Below, one piece after another: positions 51,257-64,000 of a stretch of 64,000 nucleotides of DNA. The first letter of the stretch is position 1, and each line of letters starts with the position of its first letter. The stretch comes from an uncultured Gemmatimonadaceae bacterium. Its GTDB lineage: Bacteria > Gemmatimonadota > Gemmatimonadetes > Gemmatimonadales > Gemmatimonadaceae. The stretch lies in contig CAVUDW010000003.1 of assembly GCA_963740355.1 (NCBI GenBank), positions 1,376,001-1,440,000 of the forward strand, read 5' to 3'. The notes below the pieces were generated by a model. The model did not search any database and had not been told where the DNA came from. It worked only from the letters and a program-made list of their open reading frames with translations. Made by a program: the position numbers and the translations under genes.

Positions 51257-52720
51257 TCAGGGTACGCGGTCGCCGGTCGTCGTGAGCGCGAGATCACACA
51301 CGACGCTGCCGTCCGCCGCAGACGCGGTGAGGCGAGTCACGGCTTGTACGGCGCCACTGCGGCTGATACGGCCCGCGACACGCACCGTGACGAACGAGTT
51401 CGACGGCCCGCGCACCGGTGATACGTCGACGCCAGATTCGAACAGTCCATCGCTGCGGACCGACGCGTTGAAACTCTGGCCGTTGAGGAACTCCATCTTC
51501 ATCATCGGCGCACCACGCAAATGTCGGAGCACCAGGTCGGTGCCCGGTGCGAACGTGCGCGCGACGTCCCGGCATGGCGCACGTTCGGCGCCCCACCGCT
51601 CTGCATAGCGCACCCGATAGCGTCCCGCAAACGAGATCGGGGCGAGGGCGCCGTCATCACCCAGCAGCGGCGCGTTGTCGTCGCCAAAACGCATCGTGCG
51701 ACCGTCGCGCGTCACGATCCGGTCGATGTCGGACTTCGCGATCTCGAACTCGAGACCGGAATCGCCGTCCTTCACGATCACCGTCTGCTGTCGCACACTC
51801 AGCACGCGCCCCTCGATCACGCGCCCCGCATGCATCACGATGTCGTCGGCAGTACGCGGCGAGGCGGGAGCGACCGTCACCGGCGCACGAACTACGGGCG
51901 CAGCCGAGTCGCGCGTCGAGCGGGCGCTGTCGCGTGCGGCCGGTGAGACGGGCGTTGGTGCGATGCCTGACGCCTCCGCTACCGCGACAGCCGGAGTCGG
52001 CGGAGACGATGCAGGCGAGCCCGTGCCAGCGTCGCTGGCGGCCACGCGCGGCACCTGCACATCGAACCGCCCAGGCTCGGGTGTTGGCAGCACCGGCTGG
52101 CGCGTTGGCGCGGCTGTCGACGGTCGCGTAGCAGCAGCGGGCGATTCACTCGCTCGCTCGGCGCGACGGTTCGTGTCCCAGAATGCAAACGCGACCAGGC
52201 CGGTGAAGACCACGCCCATGCCCAGCATCAAGCTGTTCGTCTGGCGATACGCCTTCAGTGATGCCGCGCTCGGCTGCGCCGCCGTAGTTGGCGGACGAGT
52301 GGAAGGCATCGGCGCACCAGTGGTGGGCCGTGGCTGCTGTCGTGGCGCGATCACTGGGCGTGGCGTCGCGACGCGTGCGACCGGGACCGGATCTGGTCCG
52401 AGGGCATTCGTCCACGCATCTGCCACGAAACGGGCAATCCCCGGTTCCACGAAGCGCTGCACCTGCAAGTCGCCGGCAAGGCGCGCCGCCGCCGCGTCCC
52501 ACACCTGCCGACTCGCCGAACGATCGGGAAGTTGGCGCAGCATTCCGTCGTCATACGCCCGCAGCAGCAACTCGGCTACCGGCATCGCGTCGCTGCTCAC
52601 CGCATCGAGCAGCAGGTTGCGGAAGCGGCGCCGGTCTTTCAGCGGCCATTCCGACGGGTCGCGCACGAGCCGCTTCAATTCCGCCGCGAGGCCGGCACGC
52701 ACATCCAGCGGCGTGGCCAC
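51257..52720 (-). CDS. Uncharacterised single-pass membrane protein, fourth gene of TerY-P operon
   Basis: GTG overlaps kinase stop (TAGTG); helical N-domain, Pro/Thr linker, TM LMLGMGVVFTGLVAFAFW, second linker, beta-rich C-domains. Confidence 0.75.
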   Translation of the reverse strand: MATPLDVRAGLAAELKRLVRDPSEWPLKDRRRFRNLLLDAVSSDAMPVAELLLRAYDDGMLRQLPDRSASRQVWDAAAARLAGDLQVQRFVEPGIARFVADAWTNALGPDPVPVARVATPRPVIAPRQQPRPTTGAPMPSTRPPTTAAQPSAASLKAYRQTNSLMLGMGVVFTGLVAFAFWDTNRRAERASESPAAATRPSTAAPTRQPVLPTPEPGRFDVQVPRVAASDAGTGSPASSPPTPAVAVAEASGIAPTPVSPAARDSARSTRDSAAPVVRAPVTVAPASPRTADDIVMHAGRVIEGRVLSVRQQTVIVKDGDSGLEFEIAKSDIDRIVTRDGRTMRFGDDNAPLLGDDGALAPISFAGRYRVRYAERWGAERAPCRDVARTFAPGTDLVLRHLRGAPMMKMEFLNGQSFNASVRSDGLFESGVDVSPVRGPSNSFVTVRVAGRISRSGAVQAVTRLTASAADGSVVCDLALTTTGDRVP

Positions 52721-54180
52721 TAGCTGGTCCTCATGCTGACGCGCCATGTGCGGCCTGCGCCGCCATCAGCGCGTGAGGCGACCGCGATCTCGAGATCGTC
52801 CACCAACTGCACCGGGGCGTTGCGCCCGATCACCTGCCCCGACGACGTGTGCCATTCACGCTCGGTGAGGTTCACCAACCACCACACCCCTTCGTGGAAA
52901 CTGGTGTACGCCACCGCGTCACGGGGTACCTCTTCGCGCGGCCGCACATCGGTGTCGAAATGCCATTGATGCAGCGTGCGATGGTGGAACAGTGCCGTCG
53001 CAATGCCATCGTCGCGCCACGCGTTGCCAGTACCCCGACCGGCACGCAACATCGGCACTGCGCGATGCACCACTTCGCCGCTCCAGGCATCGACCAGCGC
53101 GCCACTGTCCGGCACGATCAGCCACCCACGACCTGATGGCGTCGGCATGATGCGCTCCAGCGTGCGATAGAGCGCCTCTTCCCACTCCACTGCGTCGGGG
53201 CGTTTCGCAGGCACGTGCAGCGCGTCCTCGAACGCGCGCCGCATCAGCGGCGCGAGGTGCGGCCCCAGTGCCTCGACGGCCACCGTGATTGGCACATCCG
53301 ACGGATTGCGGCGATCCGTGCGGTGCTCCACGAACAGCGCCTTGCGGCCCATCGACAGTTGCTCATCCTCTTCAGCACTGCGAGTGCTGTTCACCAGCGT
53401 CCCGCGCAATGGATGTCGCTGCAGCAACAGCTCATAGAACAACACGGCCAGCGCGTGCTTGTCGGTCTCGATCGACGGCAGCGCGGTGCCGGCCACGACC
53501 TCCGGCGCCATGTACCCCGGCGTGCCAAGCACCGTCGGCGGCGCCAGGCCCGGCACCACCAATGCATCGATATCGATCACACAGGCGTCGCCGCCGCGCA
53601 GGTCCACCAGCACGTTGCGATTCGACAGGTCGCTGTGTGCGAGGCCTGCGAAGTGCAATCGTCGCACCGAGCGCGCGAGGCGCATGCACACCTGCAGGCG
53701 CGTCAGCAGCGATCCCTTCTCGACATCGGGGATCAGCGCACCCGCCTTTCTCCCGGTGAACCAGCGCACTTCCTTCTCGACCCGGTTGCCGAAGCGGTCC
53801 TGCATGAAGAACACGTTGCGATACACTGGCATCACGACGCCAAGTGTGGGCTGCGCCAGCGAATGGGCGCGGGCGAAGTCGGCCGGCGCAGCCTGTGCAC
53901 CATCGACGATGCCCGTCGGCCAGCAGAAGGCATCGCGCCAGTAGGCGGCACCCGCGCCTCGTGTCGGATCATAACTCGAGACGATGCGACGCAGACGTTC
54001 CAGCCGCTCGGTACGATCGCGCAAGGCACCGAAGTAGAACGCCACCACTTCACGCCCATCCACCGTGAGGAACGCGACCTTCTCCGCCCCGCTGGCCAGC
54101 GGCGTGGGACGCAGCGTCAGCGTCCGCCCATCGGTCGTGTGCACCGTCACCGCTGCCATCCGTGCCGCGCTCGCACTCAT
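52720..54180 (-). CDS. TerY-associated Ser/Thr kinase with C-terminal FHA-like beta domain
   Basis: FCWPTG, HSDLSNRN, IDID, GTPGYMAPE, TDKHALA, RHPLRG; ATGA overlap with PP2C stop. Confidence 0.88.
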   Translation of the reverse strand: MSASAARMAAVTVHTTDGRTLTLRPTPLASGAEKVAFLTVDGREVVAFYFGALRDRTERLERLRRIVSSYDPTRGAGAAYWRDAFCWPTGIVDGAQAAPADFARAHSLAQPTLGVVMPVYRNVFFMQDRFGNRVEKEVRWFTGRKAGALIPDVEKGSLLTRLQVCMRLARSVRRLHFAGLAHSDLSNRNVLVDLRGGDACVIDIDALVVPGLAPPTVLGTPGYMAPEVVAGTALPSIETDKHALAVLFYELLLQRHPLRGTLVNSTRSAEEDEQLSMGRKALFVEHRTDRRNPSDVPITVAVEALGPHLAPLMRRAFEDALHVPAKRPDAVEWEEALYRTLERIMPTPSGRGWLIVPDSGALVDAWSGEVVHRAVPMLRAGRGTGNAWRDDGIATALFHHRTLHQWHFDTDVRPREEVPRDAVAYTSFHEGVWWLVNLTEREWHTSSGQVIGRNAPVQLVDDLEIAVASRADGGAGRTWRVSMRTS

Positions 54181-55184
54181 CGCTTCACGTCCGCACCGCG
54201 CCATGCCAACAGCAGCGAGCGATCGTCAACTTCGCCGCGTTGCTCGAAGCCCAGCCACTGCAAGAGGGCGCTCGCCTCTCCAAGCACCGATGGCGCCACT
54301 GGCTGCCGCGCCGTTCCGATCGGCGTCGCGGTGCCATGGCGCCACTGCTCCACCAGCGCGGCGCCGGTCTGTTCCAGCGGATGAAACGGATCGTCCACGC
54401 CGTCGGTCATCAGCGCGATCAACGCGACGTCGGACGCACGCACCTGTCGCAATGCTGCCGCCTGCGTCATCGCACACGCGTCCGGCACGAAGCAGGTGAC
54501 TTCCCCCGCCCATCCCGTTTCCCGCATTGCACCAACTCGCGCCACCGATCCATCGGTGCGCTGCACCAGCACCGCCCCATCCCCAACCTGCGACACGAGC
54601 ATCAGGTCATCGAGGATTGCGACCAGCAAAACCGTCGTGCGGAGCGAGGACGGAGAGACCTCGCCGGCAGTTGCCAGTTCGTGCAAGCGCATCGCCGCGT
54701 CATGCACCGCGTGCGCCATCGCCGTGCCGAGTCGCGACACCGGCGATGCATCGCTCGCGCCGGCCATGTATCGCCGATGCGTGTTGTCGACCGCCAGCTG
54801 TGCTGTCACCGCAGCCCCGATGCGGCTCAGGGCACTCGACCCCGCACCATCTGCCACCGCCAGCACCAGCAGCCCATCGCGCGACAGCGCAGCGATCGCG
54901 TCATCGCGATATTCGCCACGATGCGCGTGCGACTTGCCGCGCACACTGGCGCCCAGCACCTGCCAGTCACCCGCCTGCAGCTGCAGCAGTCGTGGCTCGA
55001 CCGAGACCTCAGCGATCCAGCGCGCGTCGAGCCGGGCGGCGATCACCTCGGGGCTCCACGCGCTCTCCGGATCGCGCGCACTCCACGATGCCGGAACCTG
55101 CGCGGCATCCGCATCGACCGTCGGCGTGAACTCCAACGAGTCCGTTGGCACGGCGACGTCCTCTCCTCCCGACGCTGCAGGCAC
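54177..55184 (-). CDS. PP2C-like phosphatase (TerY-associated)
   Basis: SVRGKSH..RDD, VADGAGS, GDG, TDGVDDP, DDRS. Confidence 0.9.
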   Translation of the reverse strand: MPAASGGEDVAVPTDSLEFTPTVDADAAQVPASWSARDPESAWSPEVIAARLDARWIAEVSVEPRLLQLQAGDWQVLGASVRGKSHAHRGEYRDDAIAALSRDGLLVLAVADGAGSSALSRIGAAVTAQLAVDNTHRRYMAGASDASPVSRLGTAMAHAVHDAAMRLHELATAGEVSPSSLRTTVLLVAILDDLMLVSQVGDGAVLVQRTDGSVARVGAMRETGWAGEVTCFVPDACAMTQAAALRQVRASDVALIALMTDGVDDPFHPLEQTGAALVEQWRHGTATPIGTARQPVAPSVLGEASALLQWLGFEQRGEVDDRSLLLAWRGADVKR

Positions 55185-55187
55185 CGG

Positions 55188-55829
55188 TCAGGGAATGATC
55201 GTGATGCCCGGCGGCGGCGGCGGCAACGTGATTGCGCCACCGTCACCCATCGACCCCACCTTGGCGCTGGTCGTCTTCACACTCGCCGAGACGAACTTGA
55301 AGAACGCACGGAAGGCGTCCGGCGACATGTCGCGCATCTGGATCACCGTGTCGGTGGTCTCGCGCAGCGCCACGAGGTCGGCGTGATCACCGCAGGCCAC
55401 GGCGATGATGTTGGCGGGCCGCCGGTTGCGGAGTTCACCCGCGTATTGTGGCCACGCCGTGTCGGTCGGTGCGCCATCGGACAGGATGAACACCAGCGGC
55501 CGCCAGTCACCCTTCTGCTCGGCGGTCGTGCGCACCACCTCCATCTCGAAACACTCCAGCAGCACACGGAGCGCGTCGCCGTAGTTCGTTTGCCCGTTGG
55601 CGTCCATCTCGGGCGGGATGAAGCTGCTCACCTCCGTCAGCGGCACCACCTGGATCGCGACATCGGCGAACGTGATCACGCTCAGGTAGGCACTCTCGAC
55701 GGCCTGCGGATCGGTGAGCAGGTCCCGATGCAACTGGCGAATGCCGGCCTTGACGCTCTCGACGGGCGTACCTCGCATGGAGCCGGAAACATCGGCCAGG
55801 ATGTAGACGGGAAGGCGGCGCAGCGACAC
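55188..55829 (-). CDS. terY: TerY-type von Willebrand A protein
   Basis: RRLPVY..DVSGSM MIDAS, KGDWRP, SDGAPTD, FFKFVSAS, LPPPPP ending; GGAG RBS before GTG 55829. Confidence 0.9.
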   Translation of the reverse strand: MSLRRLPVYILADVSGSMRGTPVESVKAGIRQLHRDLLTDPQAVESAYLSVITFADVAIQVVPLTEVSSFIPPEMDANGQTNYGDALRVLLECFEMEVVRTTAEQKGDWRPLVFILSDGAPTDTAWPQYAGELRNRRPANIIAVACGDHADLVALRETTDTVIQMRDMSPDAFRAFFKFVSASVKTTSAKVGSMGDGGAITLPPPPPGITIIP

Positions 55830-55979
55830 GAACACTCCGGAAACGAGGTGCGGGGCACGCCCTCTGGCGCGCCACTCCGCAATCGTAACACCTGAAACCA
55901 GATCGCTGTTTCGACAGCAGGCTCGCCGGCTGCCAAAGCGGCTCCCCGAAATGGGGCGCCGAGCGTATCGCCGCGAGGG

Positions 55980-58034
55980 CTAGGTGGCGGGCGGCGCGTC
56001 GGGCGGTGTCACGGACAGTGCCACGCCGAGCTTGAGCGCAACGCGCCGGGCCATCGCCGCGCTGGTGAAGGGCTTGGCAAGGAAGTCGGTCTCGATGTTC
56101 AACCCACGAACCTCTTCCAACGCATCTTCGGGATATCCCGACATGAACAGGACCGGGAGGCCGGGCATCTGCTGGTGCAGTCGCGCCGCGAGTTTCGGCC
56201 CGCTCAGCCCAGGCATCATGACGTCGGTCACCAGCAGGTCGACCTGTCCGGCGTTCGCCTCGGCCATCCGCAACGCCTGCAACCCGTCGGGGGCGAGGAG
56301 CACGGTGTAGCCGAGGCGCTGCAGGATGCGGGCGACCGTGGCGCGTGTGCCGTCGTCGTCTTCCGCCACCAGGATCGTGGCGCCGCCACCGGCAAACGCC
56401 GCCGCAGGTTGCACCGCCAGGATCGCCGAGGGTGCGTTGGCGAACGGAAACTCGAGAATCACCGATGTCCCGCGCGATGGTGAGGACTCGATGTCGGCGC
56501 GGCCACCGCTTTGCATCGCCATGCCGTGAACAGCGGCCAGGCCAAGTCCCGTCCCTCGACCGCGTGGCTTGGTGGTGAAGAATGGCTCGAAGGCACGCGC
56601 CTGTGTCGCGGCATCCATGCCCACCCCTTCGTCCCGCACGCGCAGCCGCACCCACGTTTCACCGTCATCGTTGGTCATGCGCACGACCGTCAGCGTACAA
56701 GTACCACCGTTCGGCATCGCGTCCCGCGCATTGCTGACGAGGTTCACCAGCGTCTGTTCCAGCTGACCCACATCGGCGCGGATGCGACAGTCCGGCTCCA
56801 CGTCACAGGAAATCCGCGCCTGCTCGCCGGCCACGCGTTGCAGCAAGCGTCGCAGGCTCAACACCTGGGCCGACAGGTCGAAGACACGCGGATGCACCAC
56901 CTCACGCCGCGCAAACGCCAGCAATTGACGGGTTAACGTTGCGCCGCGTTCCTGCGCTGCAAGGATCTCATCCAGCAGTGGTGACGCTCGTTCATCGCGC
57001 AACTCGGCGCGCAGCACCTCCGCCGATGTGCCGACGATGGTGAGGATGTTGTTGAAGTCATGTGCGATCCCGCCCGCCAGCTGGCCCACGGCTTCGAGCC
57101 GTTGTGAATGGGCGAGTTGCAGCTCCATCTCGCGTCGCGTCTGCTCGGCGCTGATACGCTCCGACAGGTCGCGCAGCACGAGCTGTCGCCGGCCGCTGTC
57201 CATGGTGCGCCATGTGACCTCGAGCTCCACCGTCGTGCCGTCGATGCGATGCAATGACCAGGCAAGGGGACGCTCGCCGGTATCGTGGATGTCGAAACCG
57301 GTCGCCACGTCGCCGCGCGCGTCAGCGGCGGTCAGCACCGCGCAGATGCGCCGTCCAATGCACTCGGCGAGCGGTAGGCCAAGCAGACGGATCGCCGCCG
57401 GATTGGCAATCTGCACCAGATCGTTGGCATCGACGACCAGGATGCCGTCAGGCGCGCTGCTGATCGTTTCCGACAACTCGCGTTCCTTGCGTACCACTTC
57501 CACGAAGGCGCGATCGAGAATCGAGAGTTCGATCGTGACCAGCCCCCACACCGCACTGGTGATCACAGCATGGGCGACGAGCCAGTAGATGACACTCGGC
57601 GTGACACCGCTAGCCTGGATCGGCGGCGAAAGAAGCACCACCGGCCATGTGACGACGAGGGCGGAAACCGTGAGGATGGTTGCGTGACGTGGTTGCAGCA
57701 GCAGCGTTGCAGCGACCACCACCGGCGCGGTCGCCAGCAGCGACGGGCTGGGGAACTGCGTGGCGGTGAGTATTCCGTAGTTCACCTCGCAGCACACGCC
57801 GAACAAACCGACCAGACCACCCTGGAAGACGCGCCCCTGATGCGCGAGCAGCGCGCCAACGGCGCACATCATCGCCGCCAGGATCAATGGCAACTGCTGG
57901 CGCGTCGGATCGGCGAGGCTGACCAGCGCGAGCACGAGATACGCGACGGTGCCGATCACGGCTCCAATCAGCACCCATCGACGCGTGTCCGAGTACTCGA
58001 AACGCAGTGATCGCGGCGGAGCCTCAGGTATCAC
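55980..58034 (-). CDS. Hybrid sensor kinase (TM-PAS-HisKA-HATPase-REC)
   Basis: GIAHDFNN, NARDAM, FFTTKPRGRGTGLGL, TDVMMP, FMSGY, KPF. Confidence 0.93.
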   Translation of the reverse strand: MIPEAPPRSLRFEYSDTRRWVLIGAVIGTVAYLVLALVSLADPTRQQLPLILAAMMCAVGALLAHQGRVFQGGLVGLFGVCCEVNYGILTATQFPSPSLLATAPVVVAATLLLQPRHATILTVSALVVTWPVVLLSPPIQASGVTPSVIYWLVAHAVITSAVWGLVTIELSILDRAFVEVVRKERELSETISSAPDGILVVDANDLVQIANPAAIRLLGLPLAECIGRRICAVLTAADARGDVATGFDIHDTGERPLAWSLHRIDGTTVELEVTWRTMDSGRRQLVLRDLSERISAEQTRREMELQLAHSQRLEAVGQLAGGIAHDFNNILTIVGTSAEVLRAELRDERASPLLDEILAAQERGATLTRQLLAFARREVVHPRVFDLSAQVLSLRRLLQRVAGEQARISCDVEPDCRIRADVGQLEQTLVNLVSNARDAMPNGGTCTLTVVRMTNDDGETWVRLRVRDEGVGMDAATQARAFEPFFTTKPRGRGTGLGLAAVHGMAMQSGGRADIESSPSRGTSVILEFPFANAPSAILAVQPAAAFAGGGATILVAEDDDGTRATVARILQRLGYTVLLAPDGLQALRMAEANAGQVDLLVTDVMMPGLSGPKLAARLHQQMPGLPVLFMSGYPEDALEEVRGLNIETDFLAKPFTSAAMARRVALKLGVALSVTPPDAPPAT

Positions 58035-58174: not shown

Positions 58175-59092
58175 TTACGCCACGCGTGTTTCGCGAGGTG
58201 TGCGTCGCGAGCGCAGGGCGCGCGCGACAAACACCAGTCCACCCACCAGCAGCACCATCGGCCCGCCATAGACCACGGCCCAGATCAATCCATTTACCAG
58301 CGAGCGTGATGTCGCGAGCAGGGCGCGCGTCGCATCGCGCAGCACACCGCGGGGCTGCCAGGTGGCCGATGCGATCGGCGTCGCGACCACGTCCGGGCGC
58401 AGGTCGAGGGTAATCGTCGAGAGGGCCGCCAACTGCGTCAGCGACTGCAACTCTGCGGTCCGCTGCTCGATCTCCCCCCGTACCCGAGACAACTCGGTGT
58501 GCACCTCCAGTACGTCCGACGCCTTCTGCGTCTTCTGGCGCACCGTCACCAGCAGCGCCCGCAACTCGGTCTCGGTCGCCCGAAGGTTGGTCAGCTGCGC
58601 CGTGAGGTCCACCGCCTGCCGCGTCACATCCTCACCCGTCACCGACTCGTTGTCGACCCGCACGGCCATCCCGCGCAGCCGCGCCAGCGTCGCGTCGAGC
58701 TTCGCCGCCGGCACCCGCACCGTCATGCTGGCGCGATCCAGCTCCCCCTCGCGCCAAAGTCGCGATGCGCCAAGAAACCCCTCCACCTCGCGGGTTGCAT
58801 CGGCCACCTGCTGCGTCGCCCGGCGCACGTCGCTCACCTGCAGGGAGATGTCCGCCGTTCGCACGATCATGCGCTGCACGGCCGGGGCGGTCGGCGCGGC
58901 CGCGCTGGGGGTGGCGAAGCCTGCGGCAATCGCGCGCTGCTGGGGCGCCGCCGCGTCTGACATGCTCTCCGAGGCGCCCCGCTCGACCGGTGCCCCGCCC
59001 GAGGCGACCATCGCACTTCGTGGCGCCGACTCGTCCGATCCCCGGCTGCACGCGCTCAGCACCGCCACGACCACCAGTCCCCGACGCCACAT
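58175..59092 (-). CDS. DUF4349-family lipoprotein
   Basis: Lipobox LSAC, MIVRTA, TVRVP, EDVT, ELSRVRGEIE, C-terminal TM. Confidence 0.88.
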   Translation of the reverse strand: MWRRGLVVVAVLSACSRGSDESAPRSAMVASGGAPVERGASESMSDAAAPQQRAIAAGFATPSAAAPTAPAVQRMIVRTADISLQVSDVRRATQQVADATREVEGFLGASRLWREGELDRASMTVRVPAAKLDATLARLRGMAVRVDNESVTGEDVTRQAVDLTAQLTNLRATETELRALLVTVRQKTQKASDVLEVHTELSRVRGEIEQRTAELQSLTQLAALSTITLDLRPDVVATPIASATWQPRGVLRDATRALLATSRSLVNGLIWAVVYGGPMVLLVGGLVFVARALRSRRTPRETRVA

Positions 59093-59325
59093 ACCGCCTC
59101 CCTGGAAGATTTCCGCAGCGGCGGCCAGTCGGGCGCGCGCTGCGTTGCTCCGGGAGAGGCGGCACCCGCCGCCCCTTGCACACCGCATCCTCGCCTGACG
59201 AATAACCGGCGCCCGCTGGACGCCAACGCCCCCCCGGGCGACCGTGTATGCACTCACAGAGACGGCTGCACCAAACGTCTCCCCCCTTATCGATCGCGCC
59301 ACTGTGGCGCTTCTACACTGGCTTC

Positions 59326-59922
59326 ATGACCTCGGTTGGTTTGAGCACTGGTCCGCCCGCCGACAGCAATGCCGACGAGCCCGGGCTGGTGGAGCGGGTG
59401 CAGCAAGGCGACACGGCGGCGTACGCGGTACTCGTGCAGCGGCACCTGCCGCGCGGCTACCGCATCGCGTGGCGCGTGCTGCGACATCGCGAGGATGCCG
59501 AAGATGCAGTGCAGGATGCCTTTCTGCGGGCGCTGGAACGGATCGAGCAATGCGATCCCGGACGGCCCTTTGGTCCTTGGTTTTTTCGGATCGTGGCGAC
59601 GACGGCGATCAACAAGCAGCGCTCGGCGAAGCGACGCGAAACGGAAGTGCTGTCTGACGCAGAGGTGAGTGAGGCGGTGGGTCCGGCCGATTCGGCGGTG
59701 CTCGGCGCGCTGCGCGAAGAGGTGGACCTGGCACTGGCGACACTGCCTCCGGTGCAACGCCAGCTGATCGAGCTGGTGACGTTCGAGGAGTTCACGCCAA
59801 CGGAGGCGGCGCAGGTGTTGGAGATACCGGCAGGAACGGCCCGATGGCATTTGCACGAGGCTCGCAAGGCGCTGCGGACGCAGCTGCACGCGTGGCTCGG
59901 TGACGGTGGAGAGGATGAATGA
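59326..59922 (+). CDS. ECF sigma factor
   Basis: EDAEDAVQDAF, FGPWFFRI, region 4 EAAQVLEIPAGTARWHLHEAR. Confidence 0.92.
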   Translation: MTSVGLSTGPPADSNADEPGLVERVQQGDTAAYAVLVQRHLPRGYRIAWRVLRHREDAEDAVQDAFLRALERIEQCDPGRPFGPWFFRIVATTAINKQRSAKRRETEVLSDAEVSEAVGPADSAVLGALREEVDLALATLPPVQRQLIELVTFEEFTPTEAAQVLEIPAGTARWHLHEARKALRTQLHAWLGDGGEDE

Positions 59923-60374
59923 CGATCGACCCGCGCGACGAGTCTCTGGACTCGAGGGATCTGAAGCACGAAATGGAACCAGGAATGGAAGTACACGATC
60001 CGCGACTCGACGCCGTCCTGCGGCGTGGCGACGGCGGTGCACCGCGCACCGACTTTGCCGCGATGCAGGCGCGCATCATGTCGCAGGCAGCGTTCCCGCT
60101 GGCGGCGCGGCGGCGGAGTGCGCGCACATCCACTGCCGACATGCTGGCAGCCTGGGTACGCGTCGCACTGCCATTGGCGGCCGCGGCCGCGATCTTCGCC
60201 GCCCTGGTGCTCAAGTCGGCCGAGCCGAGCATGCTGGCGGACGCTGAATTGCGCGACAGCGATCCGGCCGCGCTCCTCAGCGCGCTCGAGTCGGATGGCA
60301 GCAGTGGCCTCGCGCACCACCTCATCGCGAACGACGCCGTCGCGTCCAGCGCGGCGGAGTCGGAATCGCAATGA
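59919..60374 (+). CDS. Putative anti-sigma factor (single TM)
   Basis: ATGA overlap with sigma gene; TM ALPLAAAAAIFAALVL. Confidence 0.7.
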   Translation: MTIDPRDESLDSRDLKHEMEPGMEVHDPRLDAVLRRGDGGAPRTDFAAMQARIMSQAAFPLAARRRSARTSTADMLAAWVRVALPLAAAAAIFAALVLKSAEPSMLADAELRDSDPAALLSALESDGSSGLAHHLIANDAVASSAAESESQ

Positions 60375-62793: not shown

Positions 62794-64000
62794 ATGGCGA
62801 TCGACGCACAACGCTGGGCGCAGGTCTCGTCGATCTTCGGCGACCTGCTCGCACTCTCCACCGCGGAGCGCGAAGCGCAGATCGGCGCGATCGAGGATGA
62901 CGACGTGCGGCGCGAAGTGCGCTCGCTTCTGGCCGCCGATGCTGGTGCCGCGGGTCGATTCGAGCGCGCACCAACCATCACCTCCGACGGCGCCACCACC
63001 ATCGGCCCTCGTCCCACGGCCGGACAACGAATCGGCGCCTGGCGCATCATCCGGCTGATCGGCGAAGGTGGCATGGGCGCCGTCTTCGAAGCCGTGCGCG
63101 ACGACAGCGGATTCACCAAGCGCGCCGCGCTGAAGATGGTGGGACGTGGGGCCACCGACAGCGCACTGATCCCGCGCTTCGAAGCCGAGCGTCGCATCCT
63201 CGCGAGGCTCGAGCACCGCAACATCGCGGCACTGCTCGACGGCGGTGTGGACGAGGACGGTCGCCCCTGGTTCGCGCTCGAATACGTGGAGGGGGAACGC
63301 ATCGATCGGTGGTGTGATGCACGCGGGCTCGATCTTCGCTCGCGCGTGCAGATCTTCCGCCAGGCCTGCAGCGCCGTGCAGTACGCGCATGAGCGCCTGA
63401 TCGTGCACCGCGACATCAAGCCAGCCAACATGCTGGTGGCGGCCGACGGCACGCTCAAGCTGCTCGACTTCGGGATCGCCAAGCTCACCGACGACAGCGA
63501 AAACGCGCTGACCGAGTTCGGTCCCGCGCCCATGACTGCGGCGTACGCCAGCCCTGAACAACGCGCCGGCAAGCCACTCACGACCGCCACCGACATCTAC
63601 TCGCTGGGTGTCGTGTTGTACGAATTGTTGACCGGGCTTCGCCCCAATGCGTTGTCCGCCAGTGAAAGCACACCGGCGCTGCCGAGCCGCCGACTGGCTG
63701 ATGCGGACGATGCCGCACCGGTCACCGCCGACGCATCGGCGCGCCGACGCGTGAGTCGTTCGTTGCAAGGAGAACTGGACGCGATCGTGATGATGGCGTT
63801 GCGGCCCGAACCCGATCGCCGCTATGCCAGTGCCGAGGAACTAGGGCGCGACCTGCAACGGTGGCTGGAAGGGCGGACAGTGCGCGCACAGCCCGACACA
63901 CTCGGCTATCGCACAGGGAATTTCATCCGTCGCAATCGACTCGCAGTGGCTGGTGTTGCGGTGGGCGTGGTGGCGCTGATCGCCGGCACGGTGGTCAGCA
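62794..64000 (+). CDS. Ser/Thr protein kinase (partial, runs off window)
   Basis: Absent from the ORF track; read manually from ATG 62794: RWAQVSSIF, IGEGGMGAVF, HRDIKPAN, DFGIAK, YASPEQ, DIYSLG, then start of a TM segment. Confidence 0.92.
   Translation, partial: MAIDAQRWAQVSSIFGDLLALSTAEREAQIGAIEDDDVRREVRSLLAADAGAAGRFERAPTITSDGATTIGPRPTAGQRIGAWRIIRLIGEGGMGAVFEAVRDDSGFTKRAALKMVGRGATDSALIPRFEAERRILARLEHRNIAALLDGGVDEDGRPWFALEYVEGERIDRWCDARGLDLRSRVQIFRQACSAVQYAHERLIVHRDIKPANMLVAADGTLKLLDFGIAKLTDDSENALTEFGPAPMTAAYASPEQRAGKPLTTATDIYSLGVVLYELLTGLRPNALSASESTPALPSRRLADADDAAPVTADASARRRVSRSLQGELDAIVMMALRPEPDRRYASAEELGRDLQRWLEGRTVRAQPDTLGYRTGNFIRRNRLAVAGVAVGVVALIAGTVVS

Follow-up and report, generated by a model that had tools for sequence, protein, structure and literature searches.

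The question raised by this locus was whether a membrane protein gene lying directly behind a TerY-P-type gene triad belongs to that triad, and what such a partner would add to it. The locus lies in a 64,000-nucleotide (nt) stretch of an uncultured Gemmatimonadaceae bacterium (assembly GCA_963740355.1, contig CAVUDW010000003.1, positions 1,376,001 to 1,440,000; hereafter the window). It contained a head-to-tail run of four open reading frames (ORFs) on the minus strand, coding for a vWA protein, a PP2C phosphatase, a Ser/Thr kinase and a membrane protein termed gene 4. Sequence comparison suggests that gene 4 is a dedicated, previously undescribed fourth component of the triad in phototrophic Gemmatimonadaceae. 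That the locus encodes a split transmembrane (TM) Ser/Thr phospho-signalling module is a reading which we regard as evenly poised between right and wrong.

Reading of the sequence showed that the four genes were joined as the original prediction had described. The vWA and PP2C genes were separated by a 3-nt spacer (TGA, CCG, GTG), the PP2C and kinase genes had a common ATGA, and the kinase gene and gene 4 had a common TAGTG. The distance from the kinase stop to the gene 4 start was 0 or -1 nt in 15/15 close orthologous loci, and because the two genes abut or overlap by 1 nt in every one of them, the four-gene arrangement is far beyond chance. An in-frame ATG at position 52747, 27 nt upstream of the GTG, would give gene 4 a length of 496 amino acids (aa), but the alignment showed that its homologues start at the position of the GTG. 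The promoter and terminator scan gave no more than chance would, with 0 promoters, and 2 terminators where 2.0 were expected. The sequencing-run listing for the window stretch showed small-share DNA runs and no RNA run.

A total of 65 close gene 4 homologues (44-60% identity) was obtained, and those with an organism name were all from Gemmatimonadaceae or Gemmatimonadota. The species-representative genomes contained 17 gene 4 loci. The whole triad was directly upstream in 14/14 of the loci with at least 3.2 kb of upstream sequence, while the other three were cut by contig ends, and a cupredoxin gene and cysK followed downstream where sequence was available. Across the 14 orthologous loci, vWA was 92-97% identical to its window counterpart, the kinase 77-85%, PP2C 62-70% and gene 4 44-60%; CysK from the same loci was 82-89% identical, below vWA.

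The search was widened with a profile of the N-terminal domain of gene 4 (N-domain), which gave 93 matches among 1.84 billion representative proteins; in 92 of them the domain was at the N-terminus. Of the 88 N-domain proteins other than close orthologues, 86 had no Pfam family, and a single hydrophobic segment was present at about residues 160-280 in most of the 88. A broader-profile word search gave 193 proteins; among the 120 listed, 11 were named by organism, all as Gemmatimonas or Gemmatimonadota, and none had a precomputed Pfam domain. N-domain proteins thus appear, from these searches, to occur almost only in Gemmatimonadota.

Enrichment of the N-domain beside TerY-P loci, which had been set as the point on which the predicted association would stand or fall, was found at every locus that could be judged, with the kinase gene immediately upstream. 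In a phylum sample of 401 genomes, the kinase was present in 11, and an N-domain gene lay directly downstream in all 11 (10 found by search and the eleventh, G203, by reading ORFs). Three of these genomes were from the window genus (g1) and eight from genera g9 and g32, in which the kinase was directly upstream of the N-domain genes in 8/8 loci. A metagenome scan added 53 loci with N-domain relatives, of which 14 had cupredoxin and/or cysK downstream, as in the window-type arrangement. A same-strand kinase was upstream in 46 of the 53, and the other 7 had less than 1.5 kb of upstream sequence, so the kinase could not be judged there. The window genome had one N-domain gene and the canonical ter loci had none.

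These data bear on the simplest alternative, that gene 4 is functionally unconnected with the triad and simply a neighbour that has been conserved. In its favour is that no direct interaction evidence was obtained. However, in all 15 orthologous loci the kinase stop codon and the gene 4 start codon overlap or are directly adjacent, the adjacency is kept in three genomic contexts (cupredoxin/cysK; pufC-puhC; aldo-keto reductase/permease), and there were zero cases of the N-domain without the kinase among the judgeable loci. We consider this alternative highly improbable. An apparent fusion of the kinase with gene 4a, the first of two gene 4 copies in some genomes, was seen in P0156 (841 aa, on a 561-kb contig) and was taken to be a frameshift or read-through artefact, as an Arg-rich middle replaces the kinase C-terminal domain. 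In G265, unlike P0156, a stop codon separates the two genes.

The homology of the vWA, PP2C and kinase proteins to ter-cluster proteins indicates that they are a genuine TerY-P-type triad, as had been predicted. The MIDAS motif DxSxS was read in the vWA protein (LADVSGSM), which matched 2,333 plasmid records, the best at 48-50% identity over about 88-90% of its length. The matched genes in Klebsiella and Azospirillum plasmids sit among terA, terD, terB and terC and are followed by TerY-C protein, PP2C and kinase genes. The window kinase and the Klebsiella ter kinase shared 36% identity over 472 aa (E 4e-94), and the window PP2C was 29% identical to the Klebsiella ter-cluster PP2C in the C-terminal half of the latter (E 1e-19). 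The order vWA, PP2C, kinase is the same as in the ter and CoCoNuT triads (Anantharaman et al. 2012, as cited in PMC11090510).

The triad nevertheless departs from the ter-cluster form in several ways. The original prediction that other ter genes are missing held well beyond the vicinity: the window neighbours were unrelated, and no TerD-family gene was found genome-wide (window genome, 94.5% complete). A single TerY-like vWA was present, with no TerY-C, and the PP2C lacked the N-terminal half of about 300 aa of its Klebsiella counterpart. PMC11090510 gives as a TerY-P feature a zinc ribbon that follows the kinase domain on its C-terminal side; its four Cys in the Klebsiella kinase align to Cys-free sequence in the window kinase, and they are also missing from the orthologues of the latter. 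Unlike the Klebsiella and Azospirillum triads, whose downstream genes are unrelated to gene 4, the window triad is coupled to a membrane protein.

The kinase consists of a catalytic core and a C-terminal domain of about 150 aa. A PDB profile search matched solved kinases with residues 153-268 alone and gave no sequence match for the C-terminal 150 aa or so, for which the Protein Atlas held unnamed clusters only. PADLOC gave no hit for vWA, PP2C or gene 4, a negative that is uninformative because TerY and PP2C of the canonical ter operon were also negative. As a side observation, the vWA protein ends in a Pro-rich tail, LPPPPPGITI(I/V)P, that was invariant in 22/22 orthologues and lies beyond the stretch alignable to ter-operon TerY, which stops at residue 193-195.

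Gene 4 had no Pfam family (E <= 0.01) and no PADLOC family. Its anatomy was worked out from an alignment of 57 full-length homologues and an AlphaFold2 model built from it (mean pLDDT 78.4, where pLDDT stands for the predicted local distance difference test). Both reproduced the predicted layout of a helical N-domain, linker, TM helix, stalk and two beta domains with two Cys. The coordinates of all features are shown in the table.

Features of the four-gene locus and its surroundings (positions in the window; E values from Pfam; pTM, predicted template modelling score)
Feature	Position	Strand	Details
TerY-like vWA protein	55188..55835	-	215 aa; Pfam VWA 3.8e-08
Pro-rich tail of the vWA protein	55188..55260	-	LPPPPPGITI(I/V)P
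PP2C-type Ser/Thr phosphatase	54177..55184	-	335 aa, GTG start; Pfam PP2C_2 1.4e-31
TerY-P-type Ser/Thr kinase	52720..54180	-	486 aa from ATGA start; Pfam Pkinase 2.6e-12
Gene 4, single-pass membrane protein	51257..52720	-	487 aa from GTG start
Gene 4 N-domain, six-helix, residues 1-115, probably cytoplasmic	52376..52720	-	AlphaFold2 alone pLDDT 90.1, pTM 0.83
Gene 4 linker, Thr/Pro/Ser-rich, residues 116-162	before the TM helix	-	poorly ordered in model
Gene 4 TM helix core, residues 163-181	52178..52234	-	SLMLGMGVVFTGLVAFAFW; model helix 152-190
Gene 4 stalk, Ala/Pro/Ser-rich, residues 182-288, probably periplasmic	51857..52177	-	pLDDT <50 over 192-270
Gene 4 small five-strand Sm/SH3-like beta barrel, residues 289-355	51656..51856	-	model domain 292-354
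Gene 4 eight-stranded up-and-down beta barrel with one helix, model residues 366-486	51260..51643	-	pLDDT mostly 89-97
Hybrid histidine kinase (PAS, HisKA, HATPase, receiver)	55980..58034	-	stops 144 nt upstream of the vWA gene
DUF4349 protein; divergent ECF sigma factor and probable anti-sigma partner; second Pkinase-domain gene	58175..60374 and 62794..63999

The helices of the N-domain fell within residues 7-107 of the full-length model (pLDDT about 87-95), and the domain was also folded alone from 21 sequences of three subfamilies. It carried the motifs RN(L/R)LLD..GSD.RPL..LLL and RF.QP..ARWAV..W..ALG, with L38, D39, S43, D44, A96 and W103 invariant; Ser43, in the GSD loop, was invariant across the three subfamilies. 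Among close orthologues, the N-domain was 63-82% identical against 44-60% for the whole of gene 4. A structural relative of the N-domain was sought with Foldseek, as had been proposed, and with the VIA structure comparison. Foldseek gave no clear match (best E 0.21, globins and similar) and the best VIA score was Z 5.5, to a COMMD-like protein. The modelled N-domain would thus be without a recognised known fold, and the missing match does not prove the fold new. One protein, P0147 (535 aa), contained two N-domain-like helical copies, each with an Lcl_C domain (PF07603, 1.8e-29) behind it, with no TM helix and 15 Cys; it was the sole hint of the N-domain in another architecture.

Matches to small barrels were obtained for the two beta domains in a VIA comparison with 48,161 PDB representatives; Foldseek was weakly consistent with VIA. 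The Sm/SH3-like barrel had pLDDT 93-95 over residues 291-340 and 75-83 over 341-360, and its VIA matches were Kustd1711 (Z 7.2, root-mean-square deviation (rmsd) 2.1, 51 aligned) and Hfq (Z 6.5, rmsd 1.5, 48 aligned). The C-terminal barrel had two invariant Cys, C383 and C475 (487-aa numbering), and the two-Cys barrel was found in the nine N-domain sequences that were read, except P0147. It matched many unrelated small barrels at VIA Z 8.3-9.8, among them Cap15, the PknI sensor, the lipid-binding protein BT2261 (Z 8.6), avidins, porin-like and designed barrels. The best Protein Atlas score for the periplasmic part was 0.77, a lead only. The stalk varied in length and sequence, with gappy and unconserved alignment columns, and Ser/Thr made up 18% of the linker between N-domain and TM helix overall and 21% of it in close orthologues, whereas whole proteins had 14%.

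Three names suggested for gene 4 or its homologues were rejected. YajC, the JGI name of homologues P0039 and P0041 only, gave no YajC profile match, and the likeness is to the small Sm/SH3-like barrel. The NCBIfam models GltJ (24.4 bits, cut-off 450) and SrfA (15.7 bits, cut-off 150) scored far below these limits, and both matches covered residues 122-314, which are low-complexity sequence of the linker and stalk.

The N-terminus of gene 4 is most likely in the cytoplasm and its C-terminus outside. The pointers are that gene 4 has no signal peptide, that Arg is abundant in the roughly 160 N-terminal residues which precede the TM helix, and that in 127/130 family proteins the part behind the TM helix has exactly two Cys. 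With this orientation, a cytoplasmic TerY-P-type switch, made of the MIDAS vWA protein, PP2C and a soluble kinase, would have gained a dedicated single-pass membrane partner. The six-helix N-domain may dock on or regulate a triad component, and the Thr/Ser/Pro-rich juxtamembrane linker is a plausible phospho-acceptor. The stalk would hold the Sm/SH3-like barrel and the eight-stranded barrel, presumably stapled by a disulfide, in the periplasm as a ligand-binding or contact surface. The logic would be that of a receptor kinase, yet with sensor and kinase as separate polypeptides from one translationally coupled operon.

The closest functional comparison is with receptor Ser/Thr kinases such as PknI of M. 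tuberculosis, in which an extracytoplasmic beta-rich sensor and one TM helix are likewise combined with kinase signalling balanced by PP2C. The PknI sensor matched the C-terminal barrel (VIA Z 8.6, rmsd 3.8, 113 aligned; Foldseek probability 1.00, E 5.9e-03), but the match was no better than those to unrelated barrels. In contrast to PknI, sensor and kinase would be separate polypeptides here, and the cytoplasmic part of gene 4 appears to be a novel helical domain and not a kinase.

A different role for gene 4 was considered on the same data, namely that it lies on the output side of the switch, as a membrane substrate or effector with an N-domain or linker that the kinase phosphorylates and PP2C dephosphorylates. 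The coupling and exclusive co-occurrence suit this role as well as they suit a sensor, the linker is enriched in Ser/Thr, Ser43 is invariant in the GSD loop, and the operon contains no further gene that is an obvious output. However, no enzymatic or pore-forming domain was recognisable (Pfam, NCBIfam and PADLOC gave nothing specific) and gene 4 has a single TM helix. The cytoplasmic part is also the most conserved, while the periplasmic parts diversify and duplicate, a pattern more typical of sensors. A role as output is judged unlikely. The reading of gene 4 as a sensor or anchor is favoured because the N-domain is the best conserved part, the stalk is variable, and paralogues carry different periplasmic parts: the tandem paralogues of genera g9 and g32 have the barrel alone in one case and the Sm/SH3-like domain plus barrel in the other.

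Several points weigh against the sensor module. No physical or predicted interaction of gene 4 with the triad was obtained; a complex prediction of the kinase (17-row alignment) with the N-domain (21-row), made without controls, gave a score of 0.17 against a mark of 0.32, which speaks neither for nor against an interaction. The positive-inside rule was ambiguous, with a mean K+R count in 15 residues of 2.35 before and 2.55 after the TM helix, the N-side being richer in 42 proteins and the C-side in 50, with 38 ties (130 proteins), and for this reason the topology rests on indirect arguments. No ligand can be named for the periplasmic barrel, since its matches are generic small barrels only. 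All occurrences are in one bacterial family; the co-occurrences are not independent and may have one or a few evolutionary events behind them. As the data do not fix a direction, gene 4 may act at the input, as an anchor or at the output, and the topology, docking, signalling direction and physiological output of the module are all inferred.

The original prediction had also placed the four genes in an envelope-linked stress or defence system. The dedicated fourth component and the receptor-like layout stood, while the stress or defence framing found no support in context, whether in synteny or in neighbours. The explanation at issue is that the four genes are a TerY-P-type anti-phage defence, with gene 4 as a membrane effector of abortive infection or an envelope sensor of infection. 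According to PMC11090510, TerY-P-like triads occur as stand-alone anti-phage systems (Gao et al. 2020, cited there) and as parts of CoCoNuT restriction systems, and the window cluster resembles the former in being a vWA/PP2C/kinase cassette without ter genes. The same source describes the stand-alone form as having an OB fold on the kinase but lacking a membrane component; the OB fold was not identified here by sequence. In the VIA comparison, the C-terminal barrel scored highest against the barrel of the CBASS membrane effector Cap15 (Z 9.8, rmsd 3.2, 98 aligned), but this match was tied with many unrelated barrels at Z 8.3-9.1 and lay within about 1 Z unit of porins, avidins and designed barrels. 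Cap15 has N-terminal TM helices and a cytoplasmic barrel, while gene 4 has one TM helix followed by a barrel that is probably periplasmic and not cytoplasmic.

Gain or loss at a fixed site would also suit defence, and within g9 the cluster is present or absent at such a site, with pufC and puhC directly adjacent in G225. However, the cluster is syntenic across species and vertically inherited, its neighbours are housekeeping or photosynthesis genes, and mobile and defence genes are missing from them. Unlike the stand-alone anti-phage form, it is chromosomal, kept in one bacterial family and outside defence islands, and its vWA (92-97%) is more conserved than CysK (82-89%), unlike fast-evolving defence genes. 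Defence is therefore considered quite unlikely, and the context points to a chromosomal, lineage-specific signalling system of the envelope or photosynthetic membrane rather than a mobile defence cassette.

A second form of the cluster was found in eight genomes of g9 and g32, with five genes in the order vWA, PP2C, kinase, gene 4a and gene 4b. Gene 4a consists of N-domain, TM helix and barrel; gene 4b, with the same layout, has an Sm/SH3-like domain as well and corresponds to the window gene 4. The cluster adjoined pufC in 8/8 loci (L020-L027), and in the 7 of these that no contig end truncates, puhC, puhB and puhA followed on the opposite strand. Metagenome loci of this form adjoined pufC in 13/15 cases with enough sequence upstream of the vWA gene, and across the five-gene lineage the cluster was between pufC and puhC in 21/23 loci with enough flank. 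Two metagenome contigs (L061, 127 kb, and L062, 78 kb) carried the five genes outside a visible photosynthesis context, beside an aldo-keto reductase/RidA fusion gene, an amino-acid permease gene and a DUF885 gene.

Restriction to phototrophs, a link that the original prediction did not contain, was also seen at genome level. Reaction-centre genes (PF00124) were present in 21/401 phylum genomes, and the kinase and cluster were found in 11/21 of these against 0/380 without reaction-centre genes. Among genomes with window-type loci, 14/15 have reaction-centre genes, the exception being a metagenome-assembled genome; the window-type cluster is nevertheless located outside the photosynthesis gene cluster. 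The window genome is itself phototrophic, with pufL and pufM (PF00124, E 1e-94 to 1e-105), pufC, puhA, puhB and lhaA, located on another contig than the cluster (G000 contig C2, about 1463500-1470131; L028 covers 1462500-1468200). Its puhB-pufC space holds phytoene-synthase-like and alpha/beta hydrolase genes, where g9 has the five-gene cluster. Four cluster-less loci positive for reaction-centre genes were inspected (L082 in G225, L083 in G294, L084 in G215 and L085 in G327). In three, pufC and puhC were about 0.2-0.3 kb apart, and the fourth had 3.1 kb of other sequence between them. As the first three sites are empty and one of the empty-site genomes, G225, belongs to genus g9 like cluster-bearing genomes, the cluster is an insertion/deletion polymorphism at the convergent pufC/puhC junction.

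The five-gene form has the same gene order and sizes as a stretch of the Gemmatimonas photosynthesis gene cluster (PGC) labelled 'hypothetical genes between the puh and puf operons' (PMC7844134, PMC11406998). Table S1 of PMC11406998 lists, as a same-strand run after pufC, VWA, PP2C, Ser/Thr kinase and two hypothetical proteins; the hypothetical genes are of 1,338 and 1,815 nt in G. phototrophica, and the run lies between pufC and the puh genes. A 445-aa protein whose source name is G. phototrophica hypothetical matched the N-domain profile at E 1.3e-32. In Gemmatimonas, the TerY-P and gene 4 cluster thus makes up the hypothetical genes inside the PGC. The window differs in having one gene 4 and not two, and in carrying the cluster on a contig other than that of the PGC.

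The combination of triad and membrane partner had been predicted to be undescribed, and the literature search (subscription papers outside coverage) found no description of it. The three Gemmatimonas papers present the ORFs as hypothetical only. In PMC11406998 the cluster genes are drawn grey as hypothetical, with kinase, phosphatase and Willebrand absent from the main text; the main text of PMC7844134 uses 'kinase' once, for BphP; and none of the three words occurs in PMC9862903. Two named components of the G. phototrophica photosystem, RC-S and RC-U, were compared and set aside, since PMC8849296 gives them as small polypeptides, which by size are not gene 4 homologues.

Published expression data showed that the five genes of G. 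phototrophica are expressed at similar levels, with log counts per million of 7.75-8.54 (Table S1, PMC11406998). After 8 h of light all five rose slightly (log2 fold change 0.59-0.91, false discovery rate (FDR) <=6.3e-4); the puf genes, by contrast, were down at 2 h and up at 8 h of light (PMC11406998). In the second experiment (Table S3, PMC11406998), the four of the five genes that were checked showed no significant change (log2 fold change -0.17 to +0.87, FDR >=0.09). The five genes are thus expressed and behave as a unit, and a light response is not established.

The phototrophic setting allows a more specific proposal, that the cluster is a phototroph-specific module of post-translational control or assembly surveillance for the horizontally acquired photosystem of Gemmatimonadota. 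The receptor or receptors would read a periplasmic or photosynthetic-membrane cue and pass it to the vWA/PP2C/kinase switch, and phosphorylation would in turn tune how the photosynthetic apparatus or envelope works or is assembled. Confinement to reaction-centre-positive genomes, the reaction-centre genes in 14/15 genomes with window-type loci and the pufC-puhC position in the other lineage speak for it. Against it, 10/21 phototrophic genomes have no cluster, pufC-puhC sites are empty even in genus g9, two metagenome loci (L061, L062) lie elsewhere, and the small rise in light came in one experiment and not in the second. Shared ancestry within one family may also explain the phototroph restriction and the PGC position. 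The proposal is tentative and, on balance, unlikely.

The window surroundings of the four genes code for CysE, CysK, a cupredoxin, a TPR protein, a cupin, an ECF sigma factor, a DUF4349 protein and a hybrid histidine kinase. The hybrid histidine kinase gene was upstream in 7/14 window-type loci and in 0 g9-type loci, which sets it outside the core of the cluster. Farther upstream, the ECF sigma factor gene is divergent and has a probable anti-sigma partner, and a second, unrelated Pkinase-domain gene runs past the window end.

TerY-P triads are widespread and their inputs and outputs are unknown, so a fixed membrane partner is a handle on how the switch is wired, and this partner carries a confidently folded helical domain without family assignment or clear structural relative. 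For Gemmatimonas, the finding names five "hypothetical" genes in the middle of the photosynthesis gene cluster, and because the cluster is carried by two cultured species, G. phototrophica and G. groenlandica, it is open to experiment. Regulation at the transcriptional level is almost absent in the transcriptome of G. phototrophica (PMC11406998), and the photosystem proposal, if true, would supply the regulation that is nearly absent at that level.

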